A stretch of DNA of 64,000 bases, taken from sequence record PP989839.1; one strand, given 5' to 3'. This stretch comes from Escherichia phage VTCCBPA_322. The notes beneath the pieces are model-generated. The model was given only the letters and a program-made list of their open reading frames with translations. It had not been told where the DNA came from and made no database searches. Below, one piece after another: positions 12,643 through 63,364 of the stretch; position 1 is the first letter of the stretch; each line of letters opens with the position of its first letter. The position numbers were made by a program, and so were the translations under genes.

Positions 12643-12887
12643 AAAGAAAAGTAGAGTTAGTACCTAACTGGAAAAGATGCTGGAAGTGGGCATCAGTTCA
12701 AATTAGTACGTTTGGTTTAATTCTATTCTCTGCTGTAGATATCATCCAACCAATGATGACAGGATTACCTCGCCACATCCTGGATGATATTCCTCATGGT
12801 TCCAATATTGCAATCGCACTGTTTGCCTTAAACATCATAGGTAGATTAATACGATTCCGTCCAAAGGAAAATTCTCATGAAAGCTAA
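12627..12887 (+). CDS. putative holin (two TM helices)
   Basis: ATG 12627 (MVRRLKRKVEL...) after GGGAG SD; two hydrophobic helices (ISTFGLILFSAVDII, NIAIALFALNIIGRLI); rare codons; overlaps endolysin start (ATGA). Confidence 0.5.
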   Translation: MVRRLKRKVELVPNWKRCWKWASVQISTFGLILFSAVDIIQPMMTGLPRHILDDIPHGSNIAIALFALNIIGRLIRFRPKENSHES

Positions 12888-13512
12888 ACAGAAACTTGCT
12901 GCGAAAGGTGGTGCAGTGGGAGGAGTTGTCGCTGCTATTCTGGGGGCAGTGTTCTATATGGAAGGGGGTTATGTAAACAATCCTCGTGACCCAGGTGGGG
13001 AAACTAATCATGGTATTACCCAATCAGTAGCTAAGTCTCACAAAGAAGTTCTGGCTACTGAGTATGGTTGGGATGGTTCTATGAAGGGTTTATCTAAAGA
13101 GATGGCTGCTGAGATATACATTGATGACTACGTACTTAAGCCTAACTTCGTAGCCTTCGCTGATATATCTCCTGCTGTAACACATAAGCTGGTAGATGCT
13201 GGTGTTAATACTGGTGTGACTCGCCCGGCTAAGTGGTTACAGTTATCCCTTAATGAAATGTCCCGTGATGGCAAAGACTACCCTAAAATACAGGTTGATG
13301 GTAAAGTCGGTGTAAGTACTGTTAATGCATATAAAGCATTACAGAAAAAACGAGGCAAAGTTGCAGCATGTCAAGTAATGATTAAGCTGCTTGATGCTAA
13401 ACAACTGAACCACTATACCTCATTAAACATGCCAGACTTTACGTATGGTTGGGTAGCTAACCGAATTGGCAATGTGCCACTGGAGGCATGTAATGAAGAC
13501 GCTAATCTCTAA
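12877..13512 (+). CDS. endolysin, GH108-type N-acetylmuramidase with C-terminal peptidoglycan-binding region; possible SAR N-terminus
   Basis: MEGGYVNNPRDPGGETNHGIT matches the GH108 catalytic signature (EGGY...DPGG.T..GIT); preceded by Gly/Ala-rich weakly hydrophobic KGGAVGGVVAAILGAVFY. Confidence 0.75.
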   Translation: MKAKQKLAAKGGAVGGVVAAILGAVFYMEGGYVNNPRDPGGETNHGITQSVAKSHKEVLATEYGWDGSMKGLSKEMAAEIYIDDYVLKPNFVAFADISPAVTHKLVDAGVNTGVTRPAKWLQLSLNEMSRDGKDYPKIQVDGKVGVSTVNAYKALQKKRGKVAACQVMIKLLDAKQLNHYTSLNMPDFTYGWVANRIGNVPLEACNEDANL

Positions 13513-25857: not shown

Positions 25858-25895
25858 TTCCTATATACGATATAAGTTTGAACAGGAAACATGCT

Positions 25896-28800
25896 ATGTC
25901 AACATTTGACCGTCTGGCAGGTTTCGCAGACAGCATCACTAATGCCAAGCAAGTCGATGTCTCTACTGCAACCTCTCAGAAGCAAGCTGCACAAGGGCAA
26001 AGCCCTTTCCAATTAACCCCAGAGAATGCTTACAATCTCCAAACTGGTCGTGTAGGTAATCTTGGAATCGGTGCATTCGAACCAGGTTCACTTCAGGCAG
26101 ATTTCACTCAAGCCTCTCCATTAGAAATTCTTAATAAATACGGTAATGAGCAAGGTCTACAGATTCTTAATAGCCGAGCTAATGCTGCTGATGTTGTACG
26201 TCAGGACTTATCTAAGCAACGTACTAACGCAGAAGCATTTGGTGATACTCTTTCTGGTGTTGGTCTTGGTGTTGCTAATACCCTTGGGGGCATTGCTGCT
26301 CTTGGCACAGGTCTGGTCAATGATAATGCCGGGGCATCCATTGCTTCCGGGATGGATTGGTTGAATGAAGGTGTACACAATCTACAGTCTGATGCACTGA
26401 ATGCTACCCGTAAGGTTGTTCAGAATCAGAACCTGATTTCTGCACAAAAGAACCAGAAACTTTATGAAGAAGACATTAAGAATGGGGAGAGCAGTTTGGT
26501 TGCCTCCTTGTCTCGCATTGGTCGTGACGCTTTTGATTCCGTTGCTAATACACTTGATAATGGTATGGCTGCCACCGATGGACTGAGTGAAGGTGTTGGT
26601 TCCCTCTTTACTGGTGGTCCACTTATCCGTGGTGTATCTGCACTTGGTAAAGTAATGGTAGGTGGTGATAAAGCTATTAAAGGTATTACCTTAGCTGCTG
26701 AGTTAGGTTCACGCCCTGCACAGGTTGCATTGTCTGCTGGTCGTGTTGCTGCACCTGCTATAGCAATTGGTGGTATGGAAGCTGGTGGTGCATACCAACA
26801 GACTGCTTCTGAAATCATGAAGATGTCCCATCAAGAATTAGCAAGTAAGTCTCCTGTTTATCAACAACATATTGCTGATGGTTTATCCCCTGATGAAGCT
26901 CGTCGTCAGACTGCATCTGAAACAGGTATCGTTGCTGCTGGCTTAACTGCTCCGGTTGCTGCTGCTACTGGTCCACTGGTATCCAAATTTGAACTCAACC
27001 CCCTTAAAGTAGGTTCACTGGCTGGTGCTGGCTCTAACATGCTACGTGAGACTGTAGAAGAAGGTATCCAGTCCGGTACTAGTCAGTTTGCACAGAACAA
27101 AGCAATTCAGGGTAATGTAGATGCTAAGCGTGATTTGCTTAAAGGTGTCGGTGAACAAGCAGGTCTTGGTGCACTTTATGGCTTCGGTAGTGCTGGTGTT
27201 GCTCAGGCTCCAGGTGCAACTGTTAAAGCTGTTGGTGCTTCTGCTGGGCCTGCTTTACGTACTACTCTGGCTGGTGCTTCTCTGGTTGGTAGTGCATTAG
27301 CAAAAGCTGCCTCTCCTATTACTAACATCCTGGTTCAACGTGGGGAAGAAGTTGCTAAGCGTAATGAACAAGCATCTCCTGTATCAGACGCTACAGTTAA
27401 CGCTGCTGCACAAGAAGCTACTGCTCAGGCAGAACAAGCACAAGCAACTGTACAGGAAGCAGTAGATGCAATGGATATTTCTCCTGAAGAGAAAGCTGCT
27501 GCTACTCAGTATGCTGCTGACTTAACTCAGGCAATGAAGTTTGACCCAGTAGAGTTAGAGCAAGCTAATCCAGCAATCCGTGAAGCTGTTTCTGGTTCCA
27601 CTAACCGTGTAGAAGCTATTCAGAAGATGGCTGACCTGGTTAATACTGCTGAAGACCCTAACGTTCAAATGGAAGCTGCAATCCAGATGTATGACAACAT
27701 CATGTCTATGGATAGCTTCATTAATCGTGACCCGGGTGCTTTGGCTAATCTGGAACAGGGTTCTCCTGCTGCTAATATTGTTGACCAGTTCTCCGGTCTG
27801 ATGGCTAACGTACAGAATACTCCAAAGGTACTTCGTGCATTCCGTGCCATCCATTCTATGATTCAGGAACAGGCTGAAGCAGGTAAGTTAAAAGCTACTG
27901 AAGAAGCTAATCAAGCCCAAGCAAACAACATTGCTATGGCTGCTGATATGTCTCCAGAAGTATTGGATGCAGATTCAGTGAACATGGTTCTGAAACATGC
28001 AAGTGAAGGTAAGATTACACTGGGTAATCGTCAGCGTGCTGCCTTGCAATCTGCTGCTGCTTTATTACAAGGAGCACGGGAATTTGACGCTAAAGCAGAA
28101 GAACTGGGCTTACGTCCTCAGGACATTGTTAGTAAACAGATTAAAACCGACGAATCTCGTTCTAATGAAGGTCAGTACTCTGCGTTGCAACATGCTAAAC
28201 GCATTCGTTCTGCGTACAACTCTGGTAACTTCGATTTGGCTTCCGCTTATCTCGACGACTTTATGAAGTTCGCCCAGCACATGCAGAATAAGGTCGGAGC
28301 GTTGAATGAGCATCTGATTTCTGGGAATGCGGATAAGAATAAGTCTGTCCATTATCAGGCTCTTACTCCCTCCCGTGAATGGGTACGTAGTCGTACTGGC
28401 CTCGGTGTCAATCCGTATGATACCAAGTCGGTTAAGTTTGCCCAGCAAGTAGGACTGGAGGCCAAAACCGTAGCTGATATTGCTAATGCACTTGCTACGG
28501 CTTACCCGGAGCTTAATGTTTCTCATGTGAAGGTTACCCCATTAGATTCACGTCTGGACAAGCCTGCTGCCCAGGTGGTTAAAGAGTTCCGTCAGGGCAA
28601 TCTTGACGCTGCTCAATCCCAACAGACCAATGAACCAGTGAATCAGGTTGATAAATCTCCTGCACCTGTGCAAGAGGCCACTACTACTGTACAGCCTAAA
28701 GCTAAACTAGTGGTAGAAAATAAGACTGTTCCTGTTAAGGAGACTAGTTCAAAAGCAGAAGAAGTCTCTACTACCGAATCCGAAAGGGATGCTTATGTGA

Positions 28801-31800
28801 AAGAAAATACTATTTCACAGGACATCCTCAATAAGAGCGGTGATCGTAGAGAGAGTCCTTGGCTCTTTGCTGATGGTACTGTTGTTGGTTCTAACGGCGA
28901 TCACATTAGCCTGTCCGATGTATTTGGTCACGATGGCTATCGTGATATGTCTTTGGATACTGGTGCTGTACGTTCTACTTTCTATAAAGGCAGTGAGCAA
29001 CCATTCGTATCTTTGCAACTTTTTGATAATCAGAAGCTAACTACTGAACAATTCAATACTGTTCAATCATTCGTAGAAGCAAACAATGCACTGATTCAGA
29101 TTGGTGTAGATACGTCTGGGCGTAACACCAATAACGTTGAGAAGATAGAAGTATCACTGGCCCAACTGAAAGCAGACTATACCGTTGGTGGTAAACCCCT
29201 GTCTGAGATGGAAACAGTGTTCCCTGTCTATAACAATGACAAGACACCGAACCAGTTCCTGAAAGCATTTACCCTGCCGGAAGAACCTAAGTCTCGCACC
29301 ATTGGTTCTGAATCCCCTTTGACTGATGTTAAGCAAGCACTGTCTTCTGCTGCTCGCTTTGAAGCATTCACTCAAAAAGAAAATAACGCTCTCACAAGTG
29401 ATGTGATTAAGCGTTATCAGGACTTAATGGACTTTGGTGAAACTCTGAAGACTACTTTGTCTGACCGTCTGACTAAGTTTCTTGCTAATAAGAATGTTGG
29501 TAAACGTTTTGCAGAAGGTACTGAGGCTAACCGTTGGGTAGGTGGTAAGTTACTTAACATCGTAGAGAAAGATGGGGATACCTTTAAGTTCAATGACCAG
29601 TTGTTAGAGACTGCTGTACTTGCTGGTCTGCAATGGCGACTTACTGCTACACAAAATGCTGCTGTTAAAGATATGAAAGACGTAGCTGCTATTACTGGAG
29701 TAGAAGCATCCTTGTTACCTGAAGGTATCCTGGCTGAATTTGAGAATGCTCAGACTCTGGTTGAAGCTACTAACTCACTGGCTCAAAAGATTGAATCTTA
29801 CTGGGGTCTGAATCGTAATCCTAATGCACCTCTGGGTTATACCAAAGGTATCCCAATGGCAATGGCTACAGAGATTCTGTCTTCTTTCATTGAGATGGGT
29901 GAAGTTAAAGAATCTATGCTGGATGTGTCTGAGTTTGACCCAGCTTCTAATAAGACTGTTGGTCTGTATACTATTGAGAAACTGGATGATAATGATGCCA
30001 TTAACAAATTCCCTACTGCTATTGAGGAAGCTGTCCTCGTAGAACCAGAAGAGAAAATGTACTTTGGTGATGATATTCCTTCCGTGGCTCAAACACAGTT
30101 ACGTAATCCTGCTGTTAAGAATACCCCAGAGCAGAAAGCTGCTCTTAAAGCAGAACAGGCTACCGAGTTCCGTGTACACATGCCTATGGTTAACTTCTAT
30201 GAAGCATTAGGTCGTGACAACATTCTGGAACTGATGGGTGCTGGTACTCTTAATCCTGAACTGCTGAACGTGAATACTGCTAAATCATTGGAAGGTAAAA
30301 ACCTGTCCGTGTCCATGGCATATGATTCCTTGTTTGGTGTAATCAATCAATTACAGGAACAGGAGAATGGTCTGGATACGCCTATTCACTATGGTTACAA
30401 CATGACCCGTGTAGGTCGTATGCAGATGCTTGGTAAGAACAACCCACAATCCAGCAAGCTGGTTCGTGAAGCAATTCTGCCAACCTTCTCTACTATTGAC
30501 TTAAGTAATGAAAATAGCCAAACGTTCTCTGACTTCCAGTTAGGTCTGGCTCAGGCATTGGGCATCAAGGTTCATAATATGTCCCGTGAAGCTATGTCTG
30601 AAAAACTGACCAAAGCTCTGGAAGGTAATTTGAAACCTGCTGTTGATATGATGGTTGAGTTTGATAAGTCCGGTCACTTACCTGCTGATGCAGTAGATAT
30701 TCTGAAGACATCTCTGGGTGGTGATAAATCATTCGTAGCTCTTATGGCTCTTATGGAATATGCCCGTTACCTTAACAGTACTGACCGTGCTAACTTTAAT
30801 ACCCCACTGTACGTTGAAGCCGATGGTGTAACCAACGGGCCAATCAATGCAATGGTATTAATGACCGGTGGTAAGTTCACTTCGGATTGGATTAAGAATA
30901 CTGCTAAAGGTGGTTTGTTCTTCGGTAAAGCTGGTAAGACTATGAACGAACACCGTTCACAGGATGACAGTGTTGACTTGTATGAAGCATCTACTAATGG
31001 TCTGCAACAAGCACTAAATGAGTTACGTACTACTTACCGTAATAATGTTCCGGTCATGAACCAGATGAATCATCTTCAGAAGTTAATGGACCTGTTCATT
31101 AAAGACTTTAACCTGAACGAAGACGGTACTTTGGACCTGAAACGTGGTATCGCTAAAAACCCACTGACTATTACCATCTATGGTTCTGGTGCTCGTGGTA
31201 TTGCTGGCAAGATGGTTAGTGCAATTACTGACACCATCTATGAACGCTTCAGTGATGTTCTGCAAGCTCGTGCTGCTGACCCTAGCATTTCCCCAGCTAT
31301 GGCAATGTTTGGTAAGGAGGCTGCGTCTGAGGCTAATGCTCAGGCTATGCTGGATACTTTCCTTACATCTATGGAAGCACTGACTGGTAATGTTCCAGTT
31401 ATGCGTAAAGGTCAACTGTCTATTCAACAGGTAGAAGGTGCTCTGACTGGTAAGTTAGACCCACAGAAATTTACTGTATCTGGTAATGCCCTGAAGAACT
31501 TACAAGAGAACATGCTTCACCTGTTCGTTGAACCAATGCGTACTGGTATCCGTAATACTGTTGGTGAAGGTCTTATGCATTCTACTGAGAACTTGCAGAA
31601 GGCTACCCAGATTCAGTCTTTGGTTCTGCAAGACATGTTCCAACAAGCAGTACAGGCTAAGCTGGCAGAAAAAGAAAAAGACCCAACATGGAAGAAGGGT
31701 GATTTCTTAACACAGAAAGAACTTAATGAAATCCAGGAATCATTATCTCCACTGGCTCCAATGATTGAGACTGGTTCACAGACTTTCTACATTGCTGGTA

Positions 31801-34800
31801 GTGAGAATACTGACGTTGCTAACCAAGTTCTGGCTACCAACTTAGATGATCGTATGCGTGTGCCAATGAGCATCTATGCTCCTTCACAGGCAGGCGTTGC
31901 AGGTATTCCATTTATGACCATTGGTACTGGCGATGGCATGATGATGCAGACCCTTTCTACTATGAAAGGTGCTCCGAAGAATACCCTGAAAATCTTTGAT
32001 GGTATGAACATTGGTATCGACAACATCACTGATGCAAGTCGTAAAGCTAACGAGGCTGTATACACTTCCTGGCAGGGTAACCCTATCAAGAATGTCTACG
32101 ACTCCTTCTCTAAGTTCATGAAGAATGTAGACTTCAGCAAACTGTCTGATGAAACCAAACAGGCTATCGCTAAATCTGCTCTGGAATATGACCAGCGTGA
32201 AGGTGCTACCGATGACCTGTTACGTGTTGGTGCTGAACAGATTGAACGTAATCTGCGCAACATTGCTCTGGGTGTGGATATTCGCCACAAAGTAATGAAC
32301 CAGGTACAGACTACTGTTGACCAGATGGCTGCTGTAGGTGCTCCTTATGTGAACAACGGTAAAATCTCTCTGGAAGGTCTGACTGTAGACCAGCAAGTAG
32401 CTAAGCTGAACGAACTGTTTGATGCTGAGTTAAACAAGCGTCGTGATGCAGTACGTGCTGCTAAAGCAGAACCAGTGAAAGAAGTACCAGCAATGGAACA
32501 GGTTGGTCGTGTACTGAAGTCTGGTGTACGTCTGCTGTCTAATACTGCTATCTCTAAGCTGGCTAAAGAGATGTCTCCGGAACAGCAAGCGGTACTGAAA
32601 GAAGTACAGAAATCCCTTGCTGCTAAAGACTACAAAGTTGTTTATGGTACTCCTGCTCAATTAGATGCTTATGCTATTGAGAAGAATATTACTCGCCCAG
32701 CACCAGAAGATATTGAAGCTGCTGAAGCAGGTAATGCATACGGCTGGACTAACTTTGATGATAAGACTATCTACTTAGTTACCCCTTCCTTGGAGACTCT
32801 GGTTCATGAATTGGTACATGCTTCTACTTTCGAATCTGTACTGGCTCATTATGAAGGTACTCCAAATGAAGCAGTCCAAAATATTGAAGACTTAATGAAT
32901 CAGTTCCGTACTCTGGATGTTAAGGATGAATCTCCGGCAGTACGCGAAGCATATGCAGATGCTCTTAATACCATTAATGGTCATTTGTCTAATGGCTTCA
33001 TTGAACCAGCAATGGCTAAAGCTGCTGCACTTAACGAGTACATGGCATGGGGTTTAACTAACCGTGAACTAATTAGCAAGCAGAAGAAAACTACTGCACT
33101 GAAGACTATGGTTCAGGCTGTGTATGAAGCAATCAAGCGTCTGGTATTCGGACGTAAGAAAGCTCCCGCTAATGCAGATGATATGTTCTCTGGTTTACTA
33201 TTTAACTCTGCTGTAGTTATGCGAGGACAAGCTCCTACTGCTGCTGTAGCCAAGGATACTACTCTGTTCCATAACAAAGCATACGGTGACAATACTCGTC
33301 TGGAAGAGCTAGGGAAAACCTTCGATAAACTGATTACAGACTACATTGGTTCAGAACCAGTACAACAAGTAATTCGTAAGGGTAAATTCTCTGATGCAGT
33401 AGTGAATGCAACTAAAGTAACCCGTGATGTTCAGGCTCATGGCTTCACTATGAATATGCAGGAACAGCGTCTATTCACTAACATCGTTGCTGCTCTGGCT
33501 ACTGAAGCTGCCATTAGTCCTGCTGCCCTGGCTCGTGCACAGGAATACTATACGCATGTTACTAAGAACCTGACCGTTGAATCGTTCATGGCTGACCCGG
33601 ATAGTACTAACCCTGCTGACCGTTACTATGCTCAACAGAAGTTCGATACCATTATGGGTGCTAACAATATTGAGTTTGATGCACAGGGCCGTTCTTCCTT
33701 ACTGCCTACCTTTGTTGGTCTGGCAATGGTAAGTGAAGAGGTACGTAAAGTACTGGCAGACATTCCTGTTATGAAAGCAGATAAGCAATCCGGTAATACA
33801 GTTGATGCAATGCTGACTAACATTGGTACTGCTGCAATGGCTAGTCTGAATGCTCGTGTAGCGGGTGATACTAAGGCTACCAATGTACAGGAAGGTATGG
33901 ATGCACTGGCTCAGACAATCATGCAGACGAGTCTCAATGCACAGTCCTTCTATGATTCCGTTGCTACTCCTAGTGGTAATGCTATTGACCGTGCTAACCA
34001 GTATCTGGTGGATTCTATTGATGCATTGTCTACCCGTGCTTTAGAAGGTGCTCGTGAAGTTGCAGCTAATACCAAGAACCCGTTGGTTAAAGGTGCTGCT
34101 CATGCTGCACAACTAATAGCTGCTATTGCTACAGAGAAGAATGGTGAAATCGTAGCTGAAGGCGTTATGGCTGCAATGAACCAGGGTAAAGTGTGGCAAC
34201 CTTTCCATGACCTGGTTAATGACTTAACAGGCCGTACTAAGAGCAATGCTTCTGTATACGATTTGATTAAGGCAGTACGTGCACAGGTACAAGCTGACCG
34301 TCAACAGTTCCGTGAACATTTGCCTACCACTATCGCATCTAAGTTCAGCCGTAAGCTGACTAATGATGAATGGAAAGCAATGCATACTGGTATGGGTAAA
34401 ACTGACTTAGCTGTTTTACGTGACACTATGTCTCTGGCTGAAATTCGTGACTTGCTGACTGACCAAAAGATTGTTGACCGTGAAGTGAATAAGCTGGAAG
34501 CAGACTTACAGAAACAAGCTGGTCGTAACTGGCCTCTGATTAGCCGTAAATCTAAGCAACTAGCTCAGTACATGATTAACGGTACAGTTGGTAATAACCT
34601 GCTGCGTAATGCTACAGCAATCTCTCGTATGCTGGGTGAACGTCAGGCTGCACGTTCTACTGTAGATGTAGCTCAACTGGATAAACTGATTACTCTGTAT
34701 GCACTGGAAGCAATGAGTAAGACTGACCGTGAGATGTTATCTTCACTGGCTCAATCAGAAGTTGATGGAATTGATTTTGCTACTTCTTACCTGGTTGGTC

Positions 34801-36608
34801 AGCGTAAAGATGAAATGGCTAAAGCCAAGTCTGACATGCGTGCAACCCTGAACCAGTACAAAGGTTATATCCCAAGTGAGACTAAGCAAGGTGTTAACCT
34901 GATTGTTGCTGAAGACAGTCAATTTGCTGATTTGATTGAGAAGTCTTATGTACGTCTGGGTACTTATCAAGGTAGTTCTGCTAATCGTGGTTCAGCACGT
35001 AGCTACTACTTCGCACCGGTACAGGCACAGGCTCCATTCTCACAGGGTATTCTACAGAACGTTCGTAATACTGCTGGTGGTGTAGACCTTGGTACAGGAT
35101 TTACGATGGGAACCATGGTGGCTGGTCGTATTACTGACAAGCCTTCTGTAGACCGTATCACTAAAGCACTGGCTCGTGGTGAACGAGGTAATGAGCCACT
35201 GATGCCTGTATATGATGACAAAGGTAATGTAGTTGCTTATGAACAATCTATTGACCCTAACATGCTGAAGCACATTGAGGGTGAGAACCATCTTGCTCGT
35301 GCAATCGGTGTATGGCGTGGTCGTCAGGTGGAAGAAGCTAAGGCTCAGCGTTTCAACGATATGCTAATTGAGAATCTGCATAGCATGTATGAGAACGACA
35401 TTAAGATGTCTGCCTCTAATAAGTCCCAGTACGTTAACCTTCTTGGTTCTAAGCTGGACCCAGTAACTGCTGATGCCCTTAAGCTGATGAACAGTGAAAC
35501 ACGTCAGAAAGCAGAAAGCCTGTTTGGCGAAGGTGAACTGTGGGTTCGTCGTGACATGCTGAATGATGCACTAGGCTATCGTGCAGCTTCCGTTGGTGAT
35601 GCCTGGTCTGGTAATTCTCGTTGGTCCCCGGAAACACTGGATACCTTTAAGAAAGCTATGCTTGGTGTGTTCGGCAACCGTGCCTACAAGTATGTAATGG
35701 GTGGTGAGAACCTGGTTCAGAACTTAGTTAAAGAAGCTAAGACTCTGATTGTAGTTAAATCAGTGGTTGTACCTGCTGTTAACTTCCTGGCTAACCTTTA
35801 CCAGATGGTTGGTCGTGGTGTACCCGTTAAGAACATTGCTAAAAGCATTCCACAGAAGACTGCTGAGATTAACCAGTACCTGAAATCTCGTCTGCGTCAG
35901 GTAGACGCAGAAGCAGAATTACGTGCAGCCACTAACCCGAACCAGATTCGTAAACTTAAGGCTGAGATTCAGTCTATTACTGACAGCCATAAGCGTATGA
36001 GTATCTGGCCTCTGTTAGAAGCTGGTGAGTTCTCTTCAATTGCAGATGCTGGTATTGGGCGTGATGATATCCTGATTACTGAGGGTAAACTCCATGAATA
36101 CATGGATAAACTGGCTGATAAGTTACCTAAGTCTGTACGCAACGCTGGACGTTATGCACTTATCACCAAAGATACTGCTCTCTTCCAGGGTATCCAGAAG
36201 ACGGTTGAGTACTCTGACTTTATCGCTAAAGCAATCATCTATGATGATTTGACTCAGCGTAAAGGTAAGACTCGTGAAGAAGCACTAGGACGTGTAACGG
36301 AGGAGTTCATTAACTATGACCGTTTGCCTGGTCGCTTCCGTGGGTATATGGAAAGTGTTGGTTTAATGTGGTTCTACAACTTTAAGATTCGTTCTGCGAA
36401 AATTGCAGTATCCATGATTCGTAACAACCCGGTACATGCAGCTATGGCTATGTTGGCTCCAACTCCTACCATGTTTGGTAACGTTGGTTTACCTATTCAG
36501 GACAACATCTTCAGTATTGCTGCACAAGGTAATCTTGGTTACTCCTGGGGCTTCGGTCAGGGCTTACGTGCCCATAACCTTAACCCTTGGCTCAACCTCA
36601 CTAACTAA
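25896..36608 (+). CDS. virion-encapsidated RNA polymerase (N4 vRNAP-like giant protein)
   Basis: One uninterrupted ~3,570-codon frame; first in-frame ATG 25896 after AGGAA SD (track start 25878 is TTG); a ~3,500-aa virion RNAP is the N4-like hallmark; RNAP motifs not verified. Confidence 0.8.
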   Translation: MSTFDRLAGFADSITNAKQVDVSTATSQKQAAQGQSPFQLTPENAYNLQTGRVGNLGIGAFEPGSLQADFTQASPLEILNKYGNEQGLQILNSRANAADVVRQDLSKQRTNAEAFGDTLSGVGLGVANTLGGIAALGTGLVNDNAGASIASGMDWLNEGVHNLQSDALNATRKVVQNQNLISAQKNQKLYEEDIKNGESSLVASLSRIGRDAFDSVANTLDNGMAATDGLSEGVGSLFTGGPLIRGVSALGKVMVGGDKAIKGITLAAELGSRPAQVALSAGRVAAPAIAIGGMEAGGAYQQTASEIMKMSHQELASKSPVYQQHIADGLSPDEARRQTASETGIVAAGLTAPVAAATGPLVSKFELNPLKVGSLAGAGSNMLRETVEEGIQSGTSQFAQNKAIQGNVDAKRDLLKGVGEQAGLGALYGFGSAGVAQAPGATVKAVGASAGPALRTTLAGASLVGSALAKAASPITNILVQRGEEVAKRNEQASPVSDATVNAAAQEATAQAEQAQATVQEAVDAMDISPEEKAAATQYAADLTQAMKFDPVELEQANPAIREAVSGSTNRVEAIQKMADLVNTAEDPNVQMEAAIQMYDNIMSMDSFINRDPGALANLEQGSPAANIVDQFSGLMANVQNTPKVLRAFRAIHSMIQEQAEAGKLKATEEANQAQANNIAMAADMSPEVLDADSVNMVLKHASEGKITLGNRQRAALQSAAALLQGAREFDAKAEELGLRPQDIVSKQIKTDESRSNEGQYSALQHAKRIRSAYNSGNFDLASAYLDDFMKFAQHMQNKVGALNEHLISGNADKNKSVHYQALTPSREWVRSRTGLGVNPYDTKSVKFAQQVGLEAKTVADIANALATAYPELNVSHVKVTPLDSRLDKPAAQVVKEFRQGNLDAAQSQQTNEPVNQVDKSPAPVQEATTTVQPKAKLVVENKTVPVKETSSKAEEVSTTESERDAYVKENTISQDILNKSGDRRESPWLFADGTVVGSNGDHISLSDVFGHDGYRDMSLDTGAVRSTFYKGSEQPFVSLQLFDNQKLTTEQFNTVQSFVEANNALIQIGVDTSGRNTNNVEKIEVSLAQLKADYTVGGKPLSEMETVFPVYNNDKTPNQFLKAFTLPEEPKSRTIGSESPLTDVKQALSSAARFEAFTQKENNALTSDVIKRYQDLMDFGETLKTTLSDRLTKFLANKNVGKRFAEGTEANRWVGGKLLNIVEKDGDTFKFNDQLLETAVLAGLQWRLTATQNAAVKDMKDVAAITGVEASLLPEGILAEFENAQTLVEATNSLAQKIESYWGLNRNPNAPLGYTKGIPMAMATEILSSFIEMGEVKESMLDVSEFDPASNKTVGLYTIEKLDDNDAINKFPTAIEEAVLVEPEEKMYFGDDIPSVAQTQLRNPAVKNTPEQKAALKAEQATEFRVHMPMVNFYEALGRDNILELMGAGTLNPELLNVNTAKSLEGKNLSVSMAYDSLFGVINQLQEQENGLDTPIHYGYNMTRVGRMQMLGKNNPQSSKLVREAILPTFSTIDLSNENSQTFSDFQLGLAQALGIKVHNMSREAMSEKLTKALEGNLKPAVDMMVEFDKSGHLPADAVDILKTSLGGDKSFVALMALMEYARYLNSTDRANFNTPLYVEADGVTNGPINAMVLMTGGKFTSDWIKNTAKGGLFFGKAGKTMNEHRSQDDSVDLYEASTNGLQQALNELRTTYRNNVPVMNQMNHLQKLMDLFIKDFNLNEDGTLDLKRGIAKNPLTITIYGSGARGIAGKMVSAITDTIYERFSDVLQARAADPSISPAMAMFGKEAASEANAQAMLDTFLTSMEALTGNVPVMRKGQLSIQQVEGALTGKLDPQKFTVSGNALKNLQENMLHLFVEPMRTGIRNTVGEGLMHSTENLQKATQIQSLVLQDMFQQAVQAKLAEKEKDPTWKKGDFLTQKELNEIQESLSPLAPMIETGSQTFYIAGSENTDVANQVLATNLDDRMRVPMSIYAPSQAGVAGIPFMTIGTGDGMMMQTLSTMKGAPKNTLKIFDGMNIGIDNITDASRKANEAVYTSWQGNPIKNVYDSFSKFMKNVDFSKLSDETKQAIAKSALEYDQREGATDDLLRVGAEQIERNLRNIALGVDIRHKVMNQVQTTVDQMAAVGAPYVNNGKISLEGLTVDQQVAKLNELFDAELNKRRDAVRAAKAEPVKEVPAMEQVGRVLKSGVRLLSNTAISKLAKEMSPEQQAVLKEVQKSLAAKDYKVVYGTPAQLDAYAIEKNITRPAPEDIEAAEAGNAYGWTNFDDKTIYLVTPSLETLVHELVHASTFESVLAHYEGTPNEAVQNIEDLMNQFRTLDVKDESPAVREAYADALNTINGHLSNGFIEPAMAKAAALNEYMAWGLTNRELISKQKKTTALKTMVQAVYEAIKRLVFGRKKAPANADDMFSGLLFNSAVVMRGQAPTAAVAKDTTLFHNKAYGDNTRLEELGKTFDKLITDYIGSEPVQQVIRKGKFSDAVVNATKVTRDVQAHGFTMNMQEQRLFTNIVAALATEAAISPAALARAQEYYTHVTKNLTVESFMADPDSTNPADRYYAQQKFDTIMGANNIEFDAQGRSSLLPTFVGLAMVSEEVRKVLADIPVMKADKQSGNTVDAMLTNIGTAAMASLNARVAGDTKATNVQEGMDALAQTIMQTSLNAQSFYDSVATPSGNAIDRANQYLVDSIDALSTRALEGAREVAANTKNPLVKGAAHAAQLIAAIATEKNGEIVAEGVMAAMNQGKVWQPFHDLVNDLTGRTKSNASVYDLIKAVRAQVQADRQQFREHLPTTIASKFSRKLTNDEWKAMHTGMGKTDLAVLRDTMSLAEIRDLLTDQKIVDREVNKLEADLQKQAGRNWPLISRKSKQLAQYMINGTVGNNLLRNATAISRMLGERQAARSTVDVAQLDKLITLYALEAMSKTDREMLSSLAQSEVDGIDFATSYLVGQRKDEMAKAKSDMRATLNQYKGYIPSETKQGVNLIVAEDSQFADLIEKSYVRLGTYQGSSANRGSARSYYFAPVQAQAPFSQGILQNVRNTAGGVDLGTGFTMGTMVAGRITDKPSVDRITKALARGERGNEPLMPVYDDKGNVVAYEQSIDPNMLKHIEGENHLARAIGVWRGRQVEEAKAQRFNDMLIENLHSMYENDIKMSASNKSQYVNLLGSKLDPVTADALKLMNSETRQKAESLFGEGELWVRRDMLNDALGYRAASVGDAWSGNSRWSPETLDTFKKAMLGVFGNRAYKYVMGGENLVQNLVKEAKTLIVVKSVVVPAVNFLANLYQMVGRGVPVKNIAKSIPQKTAEINQYLKSRLRQVDAEAELRAATNPNQIRKLKAEIQSITDSHKRMSIWPLLEAGEFSSIADAGIGRDDILITEGKLHEYMDKLADKLPKSVRNAGRYALITKDTALFQGIQKTVEYSDFIAKAIIYDDLTQRKGKTREEALGRVTEEFINYDRLPGRFRGYMESVGLMWFYNFKIRSAKIAVSMIRNNPVHAAMAMLAPTPTMFGNVGLPIQDNIFSIAAQGNLGYSWGFGQGLRAHNLNPWLNLTN

Positions 36609-50661: not shown

Positions 50662-50694
50662 TAAAATCTCCAGTAAAAAACCCTCCGTAGAGGG

Positions 50695-51162
50695 TTAGAT
50701 GTAAGGGGTTAAATCTGGGGGAGTGTAGTCTTTCCCCTTCATAACTTTCTTATTCTCATTGAAGACTGGTTCCCCATCTTCAAACTTAGAATAGTTAGAG
50801 CGATTGACTTCAGCCAATGCTCCAGGGACATTCATCCCAAGGAAAGTACCGACGCCAGTTGCTGTAACAATCTGGTCTGCCAGTGCATCCAGTAGTTCTT
50901 TACGGTCTTCTTCTTTAATGAAGAAGCTACCCTCTTCTTGCTTAAGCAAGTTGGATACAAATCGTAAGTGTTTACGTGCATCATCTAACTTGTTTTTATA
51001 GCCAGGATACTTAGTCTGGAGCACATCTAGCATCTCCACTACTTCTTCCAGATGACAACCAATCTGGGTACTAATGTTCTTACTCGTCGGATTTGGTACT
51101 GCTTTCCGGAACCAGGCTTCCGTATTTGCCAGCGTACAAACGGATGAACTTGTCATACTCAC
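50695..51162 (-). CDS. putative MazG-like nucleotide pyrophosphohydrolase
   Basis: 155 aa; HLEEVVEMLD and ELLDALADQIV resemble the acidic EExxE/D metal-binding helices of MazG/HisE-like enzymes; the ORF as listed overlaps the upstream gene by 83 nt, so the true start is probably internal. Confidence 0.4.
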   Translation of the reverse strand: MSMTSSSVCTLANTEAWFRKAVPNPTSKNISTQIGCHLEEVVEMLDVLQTKYPGYKNKLDDARKHLRFVSNLLKQEEGSFFIKEEDRKELLDALADQIVTATGVGTFLGMNVPGALAEVNRSNYSKFEDGEPVFNENKKVMKGKDYTPPDLTPYI

Positions 51163-53589: not shown

Positions 53590-53593
53590 CAGA

Positions 53594-56158: not shown

Positions 56159-56201
56159 TTATTTACTCTCCAGATTAAATGTTGCTTCCTGGTTATGACT
56201 A

Positions 56202-56938: not shown

Positions 56939-56967
56939 AAAAAGACCTCCCGGAGGAGGTCTTAGGT

Positions 56968-57204: not shown

Positions 57205-58145
57205 TCAGTAATAGTCTCACCGGGGATTAACTTACGGAATTGGATAAAGTGAAGTAGGTTACCTGAGTACAGATTCCCTTCTTTATCCATGGATGTAACA
57301 CCTTGTTCCCATGTAGCCGGGTTCATGTTATTCACACACTTTTCACCAAGATTCATAGGTGTAGCCTGATGTTCAGTAGGTGAAGCATGAATAGGCTGTT
57401 TCTCTACCAACTTAGCAAACAGGTCAAGGTCATCGCTGATAGTGGATGGCTTACCTTCGAAGTTGTTATAAGAAGCACGGGCACAACGAGCAGCAGAGAC
57501 TTTAAGCAGCAAGCCTAAAATTTCTTCATTACTTGGTTCATCACGAGTAATTCGCTGATATTTGCAATGATTGTAAGCATTAGCACAATCAACACTGCGA
57601 ATATAAGGCAGATGCCAGTCACCTTTCTTGAGCTTTTGCGGAACAGATTCTTCATGAGCCTTCTTCATGGCCTGGGCCAGTAAACGAATTTCTGGTTGGG
57701 CATCCTCATGGTCACGTAAGCCATAAAAGTTAGCCCAACTTGTTGAAGTTACCACGACACGGATATGTGTGAATGGTTCCAAGATACGGTTAACAATCTG
57801 CTTATGTACTTGCCCACGTCGTAACTGTTCAGCATACACAGCAGCAGCAGATGCAGCGTTATCCCAGATAAACTTAGCATCCTCAATTTCCATAGGAGTG
57901 AGTTCTTCTTCTGCTTGCATACCCTTCTGGTTCTTGCCCCAGTGACTGGGCATCACTGGTTCATTACGAACTTGTTCGATGAACTTAGCTGTTGGAATAG
58001 CACGACTGCTTGAAGCATTACGGTTAAATACACGGTGGGTCATAAACTCACTGTGGATGAATCGGGGATAAACCAATTCAAAGGTAGTAATACGAGTTCC
58101 TGTTTCTGGGTGAACGGAATCTGCAATGACAGTTGCCTTAATCAT
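57201..58145 (-). CDS. thyX: FAD-dependent thymidylate synthase ThyX
   Basis: 314 aa; MTHRVFNRNASSSRAIP fits the ThyX signature (R/T)HR-x7-S-x-R. Confidence 0.7.
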   Translation of the reverse strand: MIKATVIADSVHPETGTRITTFELVYPRFIHSEFMTHRVFNRNASSSRAIPTAKFIEQVRNEPVMPSHWGKNQKGMQAEEELTPMEIEDAKFIWDNAASAAAVYAEQLRRGQVHKQIVNRILEPFTHIRVVVTSTSWANFYGLRDHEDAQPEIRLLAQAMKKAHEESVPQKLKKGDWHLPYIRSVDCANAYNHCKYQRITRDEPSNEEILGLLLKVSAARCARASYNNFEGKPSTISDDLDLFAKLVEKQPIHASPTEHQATPMNLGEKCVNNMNPATWEQGVTSMDKEGNLYSGNLLHFIQFRKLIPGETITE

Positions 58146-58588
58146 TAGAATGACCTTAGATAGTTGGTAATACCACTACGGTTTTCTGTAATTTTCTTAA
58201 CCTGAACGTATACCAGTTTAAACTCACTACGAGGTAGTTCCTGTAATACTGCTATACCTTCAGTAAGAGCCACAGAACACGCTACAGCGGTTTCTTTTTT
58301 AAAGGAGTACAAGTCTTCGTACATGATGGCTTCATACTCCCTGCGGAGCATACAGAGAGCATCTCTTGCCTTATCACTTACTTCTTGTGAACCAGCAGAC
58401 ATAGCTAAACTGTATATGATAAAGACTTGTTCAAAAACAAAGTCCAATAATCTATCAGGATTGTTAGTCCCCATGAATAATTTTGTTGTGTAGGAACGAG
58501 CTTTACGGTTGAGTTCGTACTCATTCTCTATACCTTTATTATAAAGAACCGGATTTCGTTCCCTTTTCCGTAGGAATGGGATACGCAT
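58145..58588 (-). CDS. hypothetical protein
   Basis: 147 aa; ATGA-type coupling with downstream thyX. Confidence 0.4.
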   Translation of the reverse strand: MRIPFLRKRERNPVLYNKGIENEYELNRKARSYTTKLFMGTNNPDRLLDFVFEQVFIIYSLAMSAGSQEVSDKARDALCMLRREYEAIMYEDLYSFKKETAVACSVALTEGIAVLQELPRSEFKLVYVQVKKITENRSGITNYLRSF

Positions 58589-58968
58589 TAGTATTTACTA
58601 CCTCTTCTATACCAAGGGTAATGATGGGTAGTACTTTTACCTTTGAATACATCCTTAGTACGTGGATTCTTTTGTATTTGAGCCAGGTAAAGATGCATAT
58701 CATCTCCACACGGGCTAAGCCAGAACTTATCTATGATTCGGTCTACCTTAGATTTCAGATGAGGTTCCGGAGGAATGTATGAAGGGAAAGGTCTGCTAAT
58801 AGTCCATCCTTTCTGAACAAGAGCCTGCATTGTCGTGTAAAGATCTAATGCAATATCATTATCTACTTGATCATGGATAGTTTTACCTAAAGTAAGCATT
58901 GCAGTTTGTTCCAGCTTACCGAAGTCCAGTCCTTGCAGGATAGACTTACCATTTCGTCTGTTTGACAT
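58588..58968 (-). CDS. hypothetical protein
   Basis: ATG 58968 (MSNRRNGKSILQGL...) with AGGT SD; the track N-terminus (to 59070) runs through a terminator and is probably untranslated. Confidence 0.4.
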   Translation of the reverse strand: MSNRRNGKSILQGLDFGKLEQTAMLTLGKTIHDQVDNDIALDLYTTMQALVQKGWTISRPFPSYIPPEPHLKSKVDRIIDKFWLSPCGDDMHLYLAQIQKNPRTKDVFKGKSTTHHYPWYRRGSKY

Positions 58969-58980
58969 AAGAGTACCTGT

Positions 58981-59010
58981 AAATAAAAAAGCCCACGGGT
59001 TAAGTGGGCT
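58981..59010 (-). terminator. rho-independent terminator on - strand (AGCCCAC-GGGTTAA-GTGGGCT then TTTTTTATTT)
   Basis: 7-bp stem 58990-58996/59004-59010; U-run in - orientation; between the Imm-like gene and the next gene. Confidence 0.6.
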
Positions 59011-59085
59011 TGGGTTAGGAGATGGATAAGCAATGAGCTGGAAGTAACTTCCACAAGCACCACTATGCAATGATGCTTAGGTTAG

Positions 59086-59364
59086 TTACTCTGCTTTACT
59101 ACCACCATTGGTTTGAACAACAGTTACGTTTGTAACTTGGTTCTGACCTTTGTTGGACAGTGACCAAATCAGTGCTACTACCCAGAAGACTAAAGACCAG
59201 CCTAATACAATATTGAGCACACCAATACCCCACTTGGAGGCATGGCCTCGTGCAAAAGCAATGATAGTAGGGATAAGGTATACAGCTAGTATGAATAAGA
59301 AAACAAGGATTGCTGCTAAAGATTCCATGATGGTTCCTATGTGAGGTTGAGTTAGTTTCTTCAC
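59086..59364 (-). CDS. superinfection immunity (Imm-like) membrane protein
   Basis: 92 aa, two TM helices; YLIPTIIAFARGHASKWGIGVLNIVLGWSLVFWVVALIWSL closely follows the Imm-type pattern (P-[ST]-I-I-A-F-A-R ... GW ... W-V-[VI]-A-L-I-W). Confidence 0.6.
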   Translation of the reverse strand: MKKLTQPHIGTIMESLAAILVFLFILAVYLIPTIIAFARGHASKWGIGVLNIVLGWSLVFWVVALIWSLSNKGQNQVTNVTVVQTNGGSKAE

Positions 59365-59401
59365 AAATAGCCCAACTATGCTGGGCTATTTAGGCAGCTA
59401 C

Positions 59402-59602
59402 TTACTCTGCGTCAGAGACAGCAGTCAAAGCTTTACGGATGTAACCACGCACAGAACGGTAACTTTCTTTTACAGATACTGTTCGCCCATCAATCAGATG
59501 AATTACAGCACCGACTGATGTCTCATCTACGTCTACTACGTTAGTTGCAACAATAGTTTTACGCACGGTACTTCCAACAGGAGTTACTTGAAATACTGAC
59601 AT
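59402..59602 (-). CDS. small hypothetical protein
   Basis: 66 aa. Confidence 0.35.
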   Translation of the reverse strand: MSVFQVTPVGSTVRKTIVATNVVDVDETSVGAVIHLIDGRTVSVKESYRSVRGYIRKALTAVSDAE

Positions 59603-59632
59603 GTTGTTTCCTTAATTAAGCTGGATAGCCTT

Positions 59633-60139
59633 TTATTTTGAAGGTCTAGCAGCTACTGGTTGGTTTTCCTGGTTCTGATACTTGCCATTGTAATTAGCAG
59701 GTTCCTGAACCAGATGAAATAATACTTGAGCTATCCCAGCACCAGCCGGGATATGTAGTTTTTTACGACCATGATAGACCAGTTCAAGGGTAAGATACCC
59801 TTTCCATCCTGGTTCTATTACGGTATTAAACACTGATAATGCACGTCTTGCCCACGTAGACTTATCGTGAACGATAGCTACACAGGAAGGAGACATGTTG
59901 AACTTCTCAATTGCTGAAGCCAAGGTGAACTTACCGAGATGGTGTGATACTTGATTCCCATCAACGACTTTCACCATTGGAATCAACCCAAATAAGCGAT
60001 AGAAGGTAATATCTTGTTTGATACGAATATCGTAACCAGCTTCACCCAATCCATAGCTTACACCATGCTCGGATACCTTGCGGTCTGGGATATCCAGCAA
60101 CTGAGATGAACGGTATAGAGAATTACCATTAACAACCAT
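59633..60139 (-). CDS. dCTP deaminase (dUTPase-fold)
   Basis: GYDIRI, VIEPGWKGYLTLELVY and IPAGAGIAQVLF match conserved dCTP deaminase segments. Confidence 0.65.
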   Translation of the reverse strand: MVVNGNSLYRSSQLLDIPDRKVSEHGVSYGLGEAGYDIRIKQDITFYRLFGLIPMVKVVDGNQVSHHLGKFTLASAIEKFNMSPSCVAIVHDKSTWARRALSVFNTVIEPGWKGYLTLELVYHGRKKLHIPAGAGIAQVLFHLVQEPANYNGKYQNQENQPVAARPSK

Positions 60140-61314
60140 TATTTCATTCCTTTAGGGATATGAACTACCTCCCCAAAAGGTACGGTAGCATTGGGATTAT
60201 TCAGAACACACCAGATGATAGGAATATCAAATGGTAATTCTTCCATAGGATGAACATACATATCGGAGAATATGATTGCAGCAGTTGGTTTATTCTTAAT
60301 AATCCAATCACGTACTGGCACAAGGCTTGTACCACCACGACCAGTAATCTTAATCTCTTCAAAAGTATCTTCTTCAGTGATGTCTATTTCTTCTTGGATA
60401 ATATCGTCGAAGGTAATTAGGGACATCTTCTTAGGATTGAACTGGCTCTTAACGTAGGCAACCTCTGAGTTAAATCGCAGAGAGTCTGCACTACTAATAG
60501 AACCAGATACATCCTCAAAGTAGGCCAAGTGTCGTAAACGTCCTTCATCATCTTCCAGTGAAGGTAGATAAATGTCAGTGTAACGACGGTTAGGTCTGGC
60601 CCACGTATAATGAGTATCATCAATGTCGGTAAAGAAGTTCATCAGAACTTCCTGCCATGGAACCACTGGTTTGAGGAATTGGGTAATAACCTCTTCCATA
60701 CGACCAGCACCTTTACCAGGCAATGTTCCACCAGCCATTTTCTGGCTCTGCATTGCACGTACTACGTTGTTGACGACAGCACCCTGGGACTGCCCCGAAG
60801 TGGGGGATTTCATGTCGCCAGCAAGACCTGCTCCAGCACCCCCTGACGGCTTCTGCCTTTTCTGAGGGTTCTTCATCAAGTCATCGTAGATGTCTTCTTC
60901 GACCCACCCTTTGTATTGTGGGTCTTTGCAAATACCTTCATCAATGCCAGTGAACTTGTAACCATCTTCTTCTAACTGAAGGTTAATGAAGTGGTCACAT
61001 GCCTGGTTCCAGATTTCTGGGTCACGGCTTCCACGACGAATATCGTGTAGGTATGCCACATGCCAAAGTTCATGCATTAATACTGTTTTTCTTGCATCTG
61101 GGCACATCCAGATGAAGAAATCAGGATTGAAATGGAGTTCTATCCCATCAGTACATGCAGTGGGACAATCCTCACGTTTCCATGAGAACTTAAGACTACA
61201 TAGTAATGAACCAAAGAACGCAGCAGACTTGCCTAGGAAAGCCTGAGCTTGAATACGGTCATACTCACGCATGAGTTGTTCATCACTAAGGGAGTGCTGA
61301 GGAAATTGGTTCAT
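60139..61314 (-). CDS. VWA-like protein with N-terminal HExxH metallopeptidase-like motif (partner of the AAA+ ATPase)
   Basis: 391 aa; MHELWHVAYLHD (HExxH); C-terminal acidic segment LITFDDIIQEEIDITEED; directly downstream of the MoxR-like gene. Confidence 0.5.
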   Translation of the reverse strand: MNQFPQHSLSDEQLMREYDRIQAQAFLGKSAAFFGSLLCSLKFSWKREDCPTACTDGIELHFNPDFFIWMCPDARKTVLMHELWHVAYLHDIRRGSRDPEIWNQACDHFINLQLEEDGYKFTGIDEGICKDPQYKGWVEEDIYDDLMKNPQKRQKPSGGAGAGLAGDMKSPTSGQSQGAVVNNVVRAMQSQKMAGGTLPGKGAGRMEEVITQFLKPVVPWQEVLMNFFTDIDDTHYTWARPNRRYTDIYLPSLEDDEGRLRHLAYFEDVSGSISSADSLRFNSEVAYVKSQFNPKKMSLITFDDIIQEEIDITEEDTFEEIKITGRGGTSLVPVRDWIIKNKPTAAIIFSDMYVHPMEELPFDIPIIWCVLNNPNATVPFGEVVHIPKGMK

Positions 61315-61318
61315 TGTT

Positions 61319-62371
61319 TTATCCGTGAAGGTAACGAGAGATATTAGCAGCAGCCTTACGCCATTCAGGGGTAGCCTGAAGTTCTGGCAATGCTCTACCT
61401 ACTGTACGGAAGTACAGAATCTTATGAGTGAACGTTTTAAATCGTTCAATGTACTGAAGAACATCAGCGAAGTTCTCTTCAGTAGTTTTGTTAGCCAGAT
61501 GGTTAACGGTAGCCCAGCACAGGTTGTTATCTTCTGGTAGTGCACAGCCCAAGGGGTCTTTTACTACCTTTTCAATCGTAATCATACGATTGTATACCTG
61601 AGTAAATTGAACAAACTCTGTAGCCTTACCAGCAGTAACGTGCCCTGCATAGTAGATAGAATCTTCGTCAGGCAGAGCACCTTCAGGGCGGTTCTTAAGG
61701 TCTTTGTTAACAAAGTCCCAGGTACGAGGGCAACAGAACGTTTTATTCTTATGTGCTGGGTCAAAGTCATGCAGATAACCGGGGTTAGCATGTAAGAATG
61801 CAACCAGACGTTCATCCCATTCTTGAGGAATCATTACGTCTTCAACAAAAATGTCGAAGTTGAGTTCCATTTCGAAGTGGACAACACGAGACTGCATTGC
61901 AGTACCCAGTGGGTTAACGATGGCACGGTCAGTAGCTTTGTTACCTGCACATATAATCATCACATTAGGATGAAGTTTTTTCTGACCAGTCATACGGTCT
62001 AAAATCAGTTTATATGCAGCAGCTACTACTTCTTTTCTGGCTGAGTTGAACTCATCAAGGAACAGGAGCCAACCATTATATCCTTCCGGTACTTTATCTC
62101 CCTCAATAGGGAATAAGTCAGCGAATGGGATAAACTCTGCACGGTCACCATTACGGAATGGTAGGCCAGACAAGTCTTCCGGGGCAGAAGTAGACAGACG
62201 ATGGTCTATCAGCTTCATACCAAATTCTTCTGCAACAGAGCGAATGATTGCAGATTTACCCATACCTGGTGATGAAGTCAGGAACGGTACGTTACCTGCT
62301 TGCAGGGCACGGATAATAAAGTTACGGGCCTGACGTGTATTACATACGGTCAGTGAGTCAATGCTCGCCAT
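61319..62371 (-). CDS. MoxR-like AAA+ ATPase
   Basis: Walker A SSPGMGKSAI; Walker B LLFLDEFNS; sensor-1-like ICAGN; Arg-finger-like TAMQSR. Confidence 0.65.
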   Translation of the reverse strand: MASIDSLTVCNTRQARNFIIRALQAGNVPFLTSSPGMGKSAIIRSVAEEFGMKLIDHRLSTSAPEDLSGLPFRNGDRAEFIPFADLFPIEGDKVPEGYNGWLLFLDEFNSARKEVVAAAYKLILDRMTGQKKLHPNVMIICAGNKATDRAIVNPLGTAMQSRVVHFEMELNFDIFVEDVMIPQEWDERLVAFLHANPGYLHDFDPAHKNKTFCCPRTWDFVNKDLKNRPEGALPDEDSIYYAGHVTAGKATEFVQFTQVYNRMITIEKVVKDPLGCALPEDNNLCWATVNHLANKTTEENFADVLQYIERFKTFTHKILYFRTVGRALPELQATPEWRKAAANISRYLHG

Positions 62372-62405
62372 TTACTTACTCTCCTAAAGTTAATGGAATT
62401 ACTAA

Positions 62406-62732
62406 TTAAGATTTAATACAAGGGTATGCTGTATCAATTGCCAGCAGAACCATGTCTGATGGTACTTTTACTGCATTAACCTTTCGGTCGTACAGAATAA
62501 TAGTGGCTACTTTGTCAAAGACATTTCCTAACTTTAAACTATCTGGTACGCAGTTTTTGCCTGCTTCTACACCCATAGTAACCATGCCCATGAAGTAACC
62601 TTGGTTCACAAAGCTATCATTCCCGGCCTTATAAGCAGCAGCAGCTTCCAATAAGGTTTCACGGCTGGATGCTTGAGCATTGAATGACAGAGCTGATAAA
62701 GCTACTACAGCAACAGCAATTAAAGTTTTCAT
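62406..62732 (-). CDS. small secreted (periplasmic) protein
   Basis: 108 aa; signal-peptide-like MKTLIAVAVVALSALSFNAQA; two Cys in the mature part. Confidence 0.45.
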   Translation of the reverse strand: MKTLIAVAVVALSALSFNAQASSRETLLEAAAAYKAGNDSFVNQGYFMGMVTMGVEAGKNCVPDSLKLGNVFDKVATIILYDRKVNAVKVPSDMVLLAIDTAYPCIKS

Positions 62733-63309: not shown

Positions 63310-63332
63310 TTCCTGGCTCCAGGATGTTTAAG

Positions 63333-63364
63333 TCAAAAAAAGACCTCCCTTCAATAGGGAGGTC
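63333..63364 (-). terminator. rho-independent terminator on - strand (GACCTCCC-TCAATA-GGGAGGTC then TTTTTTTGA)
   Basis: 8-bp stem 63343-63350/63357-63364; long U-run in - orientation; downstream of the Ig-like gene. Confidence 0.6.

Follow-up and report, generated by a model that had tools for sequence, protein, structure and literature searches.

Does the short gene at positions 59,086 to 59,364 of Escherichia phage VTCCBPA_322 (record PP989839.1) code for a superinfection-immunity protein and, if so, against which incoming phages would this protein act? A sequence-only reading of the 64,000 nucleotides analysed here (hereafter the window, meaning this whole stretch) had described a two-transmembrane, Imm-like product of the replication arm that blocks DNA injection by related phages.

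The phage and its relatives

Region 57000-61500 of the window was 93% identical to Escherichia phages PBM-2 and PBM-3 and 88-95% identical to PhAPEC7, Bas96, ECBP1, pSb-1, PGN829.1 and others, 82 phage records matching in all. Relatives whose taxonomy was checked belonged to family Schitoviridae, subfamily Enquatrovirinae and genus Gamaleyavirus, which is composed of G7C-like relatives of N4. The hallmark virion RNA polymerase (vRNAP) is encoded by an open reading frame (ORF) of 3576 aa at 25878..36608. The window is a Gamaleyavirus, i.e. an N4-like podophage of the G7C/PhAPEC7 type.

The gene is already annotated as Imm in dozens of near-identical N4-like coliphages, and the annotation as such adds nothing new. 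An identical 80-aa protein (100%) was found in phage U1G, with the RefSeq label "immunity to superinfection", and about 50 further records contained Imm proteins with 93-99% identity, many of them labelled "superinfection immunity protein" or "membrane immunity protein". Copies at least 90% identical were recorded in 52 phage records, all Gamaleyavirus or Gamaleyavirus-like among the matches listed. Protein gp27.1 of G7C bears the same superinfection-immunity label, together with the note "similar to Imm of phage JS98", and the EC1-UPM genome paper from 2013 gave the orthologue (AGC31537) with IPR016410 (PMC3853248). In PGN829.1 (MH733496.1), the deposited annotation splits imm into two short coding sequences on opposite strands (segment 2405-2663), which is an artefact; a disrupted or inverted imm was rejected for this phage, where the ORF is intact.

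Gene model and selection

The gene and the sequence in front of it are organized as follows:

59086..59328, minus strand: imm-family coding sequence, 80 aa plus stop (MESLAAILVF...GGSKAE); preferred gene model
59329..59364, minus strand: 5' leader, i.e. the N-terminal extension of the 92-aa GTG model; read from the sequence
59364..59392, minus strand: conserved stem-loop between the gp27-like gene and imm; 13-bp stem, 3-nt loop, no U-tract

The 92-aa ORF with a GTG start described by the sequence-only reading is present exactly at 59086..59364 on the minus strand, but its start had to be revised. Translation almost certainly begins at ATG 59328 and yields 80 aa. This start was preferred because a Shine-Dalgarno-like AGGAA (59338-59334, read from the sequence) lies 5 nt ahead of it, and because a Met-Glu start following such a motif was observed in all five homologues compared (window, G7C, Moo19, Mangalitsa and T4). 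Conversely, the GTG extension lacks conservation: Moo19 has the GTG in another frame, and in Mangalitsa an in-frame stop four codons upstream blocks such an extension. Further arguments were that the G of the window GTG forms the final paired base of the 13-bp hairpin stem, and that PhAPEC7_26 (imm of PhAPEC7) is annotated at 243 bp. The Moo19 frame, the Mangalitsa stop, the conserved Met-Glu and the overlap with the stem led to the rejection of the 92-aa model.

The gene occurred as a single copy in the window. Over its first 60 codons, dN/dS values ranged from 0.06 to 0.24 in 15 of 15 pairwise comparisons, and they therefore indicate purifying selection on imm. Values remained low where synonymous sites were saturated, i.e. 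between Gamaleyavirus and Moo19 or Mangalitsa.

Membership of the Imm family

The Imm-type motif that had been noticed in the protein was borne out by a Pfam search. PF14373 (Imm_superinfect, "Superinfection immunity protein") matched far above its cut-off and far beyond chance, with 61.8 bits and an E-value of 5.5e-17 for the 80-aa form (curated gathering cut-off of 27.9 bits; profile positions 1-42 of 42 covered). The 92-aa form scored 61.3 bits, E-values of both forms lying between 5.5e-17 and 7.8e-17. T4 Imm reached 58.2 bits in the same search, slightly under the window protein. PHROG comparison pointed to the same family (phrog_1039, "immunity to superinfection", E 7.9e-31).

A direct relationship with T4 Imm (NP_049660 from NC_000866, 83 aa) was also observed by BLASTP: the alignment was collinear over residues 1-74 (of 80) against 1-82 (of 83), with an E-value of 6e-11 and 28% identity. 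The imm genes of T4-like phages were likewise reached by tblastn with the window protein. T4 residues R33 and W50 aligned with R27 and W44 of the window protein. R27 was invariant in the five sequences aligned, and W44 was replaced by Leu in Mangalitsa only, a change that counts against a T4-like function as Mangalitsa carries the closest homologue outside Schitoviridae. From these comparisons the window protein is, with scarcely any doubt, a member of the Imm family and a true homologue of T4 Imm. No match was obtained in NCBIfam or PADLOC, nor in a PDB sequence search at E-values up to 10.

Its small size alone would speak for a chance ORF that is no gene at all. Such an origin is extremely improbable, being refuted by the Pfam match at E 5.5e-17, purifying selection and conservation in more than 50 genomes.

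Membrane topology and structure model

The presence of two transmembrane segments, as proposed from the sequence, was supported by hydropathy, which delimited two hydrophobic blocks at residues 4-26 and 33-57 (80-aa numbering). They are separated by a basic loop, R27-G-H-A-S-K32, with R27, H29 and K32 inside it, and the N-terminus is acidic. We infer an N-out, loop-in topology, which fits the acidic N-terminus, the basic loop and the hydropathy profile. Inserted in the cytoplasmic membrane, the protein would thus expose its N-terminus on the outside and keep loop R27-K32 inside. The N-terminus of T4 Imm is reported to face the periplasm (bioRxiv 10.64898/2026.03.06.709160).

An AlphaFold2 single-sequence model displayed a helical hairpin (helices 2-28 and 32-74, pLDDT 75). 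Fold search of this model against BFVD returned generic small membrane helical hairpins and one holin, all with E-values of at least 0.86.

Among Gamaleyavirus Imm proteins, the first 60 residues were nearly identical and two types of C-terminal tails were distinguished (residues 61-80, encoded by 59086-59148). The window protein shares the tail NQVTNVTVVQTNGGSKAE with PhAPEC7 and PGN829.1; G7C, Moo19 and Mangalitsa have in common a longer one, SQTTIVNVGSGN..NVSQ....

The generic fold matches would speak for a role other than exclusion, e.g. in membrane physiology or lysis timing, in which case the family name would be inherited from a single characterised member. In the same sense, the PF14373 domain comprises just 42 mostly hydrophobic residues, and its members also occur in a non-phage chromosomal context. 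One of them, 50% identical to the window protein (72.7 bits), was found on a gammaproteobacterial MAG contig of 2.9 Mb (CAVZFF010000003.1; 3983-4204 of the segment examined). It had genes for sugar-binding, oxidoreductase, PQQ-dehydrogenase and MFS-transporter proteins as neighbours, and the 4 kb to each side contained no phage genes. An exclusion role can therefore not be taken for granted from the family name. Against a non-exclusion role stand several observations: some 45 kb separate imm from the lysis genes (endolysin ORF 12877..13512), the protein displayed no match to holin families in Pfam or PHROG, and G7C was reported to be devoid of lysis inhibition (N4 lysis preprint). Moreover, the full-length similarity to T4 Imm, which includes functionally tested residues, favours a shared function. 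On balance, we consider a non-exclusion role quite unlikely. A holin was rejected, given the lack of holin matches in Pfam and PHROG and the position of imm outside the lysis cassette; in Bas96, holin, endolysin and spanin genes are located in the structural arm, at a place corresponding to about 12.6-14 kb of the window.

Locus and gene neighbourhood

The placement in the replication arm proved correct, with dCTP deaminase, ThyX and rIIA/B as neighbours (replication and nucleotide-metabolism genes). Upstream of imm, the following was delineated:

59402..62732, minus strand: upstream cistrons of the co-oriented unit; from ORFs, with names taken from relatives

These cistrons code for a 108-aa signal-peptide protein, an AAA ATPase (N4 gp24-like), a VWA protein (gp25-like), a dCTP deaminase (gp26-like) and a 66-aa gp27-like protein. 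Gene imm is the last cistron of this six-gene co-oriented unit, which runs from 62732 to 59086 and ends at terminator 58989-59011. The first cistron (62406-62732, 108 aa) displayed a signal-peptide-like N-terminus, two cysteines and a match to phrog_11132, and was 37-85% identical between Gamaleyavirus isolates.

Beyond imm lies the gp28-like gene, whose real start is ATG 58974 (128 aa, phrog_12812, E 2.6e-71). A 160-aa ORF with a TTG start (58588-59070) was rejected as a model for this gene, since it runs across the terminator.

In terms of N4 gene order, imm sits in the gp27-gp28 gap, both in Gamaleyavirus and in Moovirus Moo19. N4 itself displays gp26 (dCTP deaminase), gp27, a gap of 113 nt and gp28; no imm was found there, by gene order or by tblastn, in agreement with a note on PhAPEC7. 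The gene was 85-98% identical between isolates while its neighbours were mosaic (37-98%): identities were 47-89% for the gp27-like protein, 45-97% for dCTP deaminase and 53-84% for the gp28-like protein, the latter being absent in G7C. Because it is absent from N4, imm of Gamaleyavirus looks like a horizontally acquired cassette. Among 80 viral contigs, the N4-like imm neighbourhood was shared by seven Gamaleyavirus contigs only.

Proximity of imm to a gene of the thymidylate-synthase type was noted in three unrelated phage groups, namely with thyX in the window (57201-59328), with gene 42 in T4 and with thyX in Mangalitsa (segment coordinates 2480-3625 for T4 and 2501-5180 for Mangalitsa).

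Flanking hairpins and transcription

Two further features were delineated downstream of imm:

59055-59078 and 59040-59052, minus strand: pair of additional hairpins in the 3' untranslated region of imm; from folding
58980..59011 (stem 58989-59011), minus strand: intrinsic-terminator-like hairpin with U-run; from consensus scan, folding and PhAPEC7

The terminator that had been noticed at 58981-59010 was recovered by consensus scan as a hairpin at 59011..58989 on the minus strand. Its stem of 8 bp includes 5 G-C pairs and precedes TTTTTTATTT; the structure folds at -12.8 kcal/mol (z = -4.8 relative to shuffled sequences). The equivalent site of PhAPEC7 is annotated as an ARNold terminator. The terminator starts 75 nt past the imm stop and its U-run ends 6 nt before the ATG of the gp28-like gene (58974). 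Yet the gene is not bracketed by terminators, as had been stated: this one lies on the 3' side only, and the hairpin on the 5' side is a different structure, devoid of U-tract.

The upstream stem-loop (59364-59392) is situated between the gp27-like stop codon (59404-59402) and imm and folds at -17.4 kcal/mol (z = -3.5). PGN829.1 and PhAPEC7 carry it without any change from the window, and the G7C record enters it as 'stem_loop'. The G7C copy has its apical 9 nt inverted (reverse complement) with respect to the window (G7C segment 1143-1159), and in Moo19 an 11-bp stem with its 3-nt loop is kept by compensatory changes in the upper stem (segment ~1440-1470). It is therefore the structure that is conserved, and not the sequence alone. 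A repeated element was rejected, the stem-loop being unique in the window. Termination, RNA processing or mRNA stabilisation would be candidate roles for it.

The 111-nt 3' region of imm folds at -31.5 kcal/mol (z = -3.3); its conservation extends to PhAPEC7, with partial divergence in PGN829.1. One of the two hairpins within 59040-59078 displays a 5-bp stem and a 3-nt loop within a near-perfect palindrome, TGGAAGTTACTTCCA (coding strand). Neither Rfam families nor tRNAs were found over the whole window.

The suggestion that imm may be independently regulated was not upheld either, the terminator closing the six-gene unit and no promoter being found before imm. The sigma-70 promoter scan gave no candidate there on the coding strand, promoters of phage RNA polymerases being outside its reach. 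N4 genes of this type are transcribed by phage RNA polymerase. Sigma-70-like promoters were depleted in 44001-64000 (19 found, 39.5 ± 5.2 expected), which would fit an N4-type transcription by such a polymerase. Strong minus-strand terminators in the same interval occurred at 63364..63342, 59011..58989, 56963..56942 and 50696..50679, splitting the replication arm into units; the first two are those nearest to the imm unit. Imm would be made in the early-to-middle phase, alongside nucleotide-metabolism enzymes.

Candidate targets and the phages that may be excluded

According to a 2026 preprint (bioRxiv 10.64898/2026.03.06.709160), T4 Imm binds gp29, the tape measure protein of T4, at its helical-bundle domain, and substitutions R33A and W50A weaken exclusion. 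The best explanation for the window gene is that of an Imm homologue with a T4-like block of incoming genomes at the inner membrane, which we regard as moderately probable. Like its T4 counterpart, the protein would deny passage through the inner membrane to the genome of any phage that arrives later, presumably by binding a membrane-inserting delivery protein of the superinfecting phage. Excluded phages would be either of its own kind, through the N4-type gp50/gp51/gp52, or heterologous and tape-measure-bearing, as for T4 Imm. By analogy, an exclusion function as such is reasonably plausible; the literature searched contained neither an experiment nor an exclusion phenotype for any Gamaleyavirus Imm.

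N4-type phages deliver their DNA by means of three ejected proteins (PMC13434306): gp52 makes up the outer-membrane complex, gp51 the periplasmic tunnel, its C-terminus being hydrophobic, and vRNAP gp50 probably contributes to the inner-membrane complex through its N-terminal domain. That description of the N4 virion and ejection complex names gp50-52 and no tape measure protein (PMC13434306). A tblastn search with T4 gp29, either at full length or as residues 205-518, revealed no homologue in the window (best E-values of 0.05-0.22). The earlier claim of a block of DNA injection by related phages is an analogy only. It is left unsupported because T4 Imm is reported to bind gp29, N4-type phages use gp50-52 and the window lacks a gp29 homologue.

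A 406-aa ORF (16650-17870) matched phrog_2120, 'tail length tape measure protein' (E 5e-147), a label that was copied into Bas96. It displayed neither a Pfam or NCBIfam match nor a hydrophobic segment, and lies between the portal and major capsid genes. This site is the usual position of a scaffolding protein. According to the DEV paper, no scaffolding protein was identified for N4. In a short-tailed phage, the 'tape measure' label of this ORF is doubtful.

Exclusion of its own kind, i.e. a block of N4-like or Gamaleyavirus injection through the inner-membrane part of the N4-type ejection complex, would be compatible with several features of the window. The gp51-like protein (23837-25801) and vRNAP (25878-36608) are both encoded there. 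Candidate targets would be the gp51 C-terminus, the vRNAP N-terminal domain or the hydrophobic block of a gp53-like plug. Conservation of imm at one locus across Gamaleyavirus and Moovirus (dS above 1.4, dN/dS about 0.1) fits its use in every infection, and the phage's own progeny would probably be the commonest superinfectors. However, the sole mechanistic precedent is tape-measure binding, and the nearest relatives outside Schitoviridae occur in myophages with tape measures. Argued by analogy, own-kind exclusion may be held as possible though somewhat unlikely.

As to the plug, an 884-aa protein (20713-23367, phrog_2220) is encoded at the position of N4 gp53 and displayed a strongly hydrophobic stretch some 100 residues long (665-765; Kyte-Doolittle values up to 2.6), from which several membrane-spanning helices may be expected in this tail-lumen protein.

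The distribution of homologues would favour the opposite direction, in which the T4-type mechanism would have been kept against heterologous, tape-measure-bearing phages (T-even, Chaseviridae and other myo- or siphophages of Enterobacteriaceae) and not against N4-like ones. Imm homologues were detected by tblastn in 809 phage records, most of which appear long-tailed as judged by the names, sizes and annotations given. They included T4-like phages of Klebsiella, Citrobacter and Escherichia, Salmonella phages of ~42 kb, Acinetobacter phages of 43-45 kb and mycobacteriophages. The nearest Imm proteins outside Schitoviridae were those of myophages, namely Mangalitsa from Chaseviridae (54-62% identity) and the Acinetobacter phages of 43-45 kb. 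In addition, R27 and W44 correspond to T4 residues that are important for exclusion and for the tape-measure interface, and imm looks like an acquired cassette, absent from N4. On the other hand, 28% identity to T4 Imm does not allow specificity for a given tape measure to be predicted, and the benefit would depend on frequent mixed infections. Action on heterologous phages thus appears, like that on its own kind, conceivable at less than even odds.

Whichever phages are concerned, the T4-like block at the inner membrane is the reading that we retain. That Imm was retargeted to the N4-type ejection complex in Gamaleyavirus and Moovirus, the family thereby extending beyond tape-measure targets, seems rather unlikely; if true, exclusion through the ejection complex of a phage that injects its vRNAP would be seen here for the first time. 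A podophage Imm under purifying selection in the absence of a tape measure provides a convenient test of the generality of the tape-measure mechanism: the family may act across tail types, or may be open to retargeting towards a different genome-delivery machine. The answer bears on phage-phage competition and on phage cocktails combining Gamaleyavirus with T-even phages.

Comparison with known systems

T4 Imm, the founder of the family (PF14373 / IPR016410), resembles the window protein in size (83 versus 80 aa), in its Met-Glu start and in its two hydrophobic blocks. Both display the basic R-G-x-x-S-K loop and match the full PF14373 profile, and T4 R33 and W50 are kept as R27 and W44. For T4 imm, translation from an alternative start further upstream yields 94 aa, an extension reported as dispensable (bioRxiv 10.64898/2026.03.06.709160); an optional upstream in-frame start is thus found in both genes, for 94 aa in T4 and 92 aa in the window. 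T4 imm adjoins gene 42, and both imm genes lie among nucleotide-metabolism and replication genes. The main difference is the carrier: unlike T4, it is an N4-like podophage without the tape measure protein that was reported as the ligand of T4 Imm. Furthermore, 72% of the residues differ, the C-terminal tail is unrelated, and exclusion by the window protein is a prediction from its sequence.

HK97 gp15 and P22 SieA follow the same proposed logic, that of a phage inner-membrane protein stopping genome translocation. For gp15, too, the tape measure protein is the proposed target (bioRxiv 10.64898/2026.03.06.709160), and SieA acts for a podophage (PMC10883804). No sequence relation of either to the window Imm was detected in Pfam or PHROG, the likeness being functional only.

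The closest systems are the annotated Imm proteins of Gamaleyavirus and Moovirus (G7C gp27.1, PhAPEC7_26, EC1-UPM AGC31537, U1G and Moo19 gp41), from which the window differs in nothing material. They share with it the same locus, the upstream hairpin and the terminator, and the window protein bears the PhAPEC7-type tail NQVTNVTVVQTNGGSKAE rather than that of the G7C/Moo19 type.
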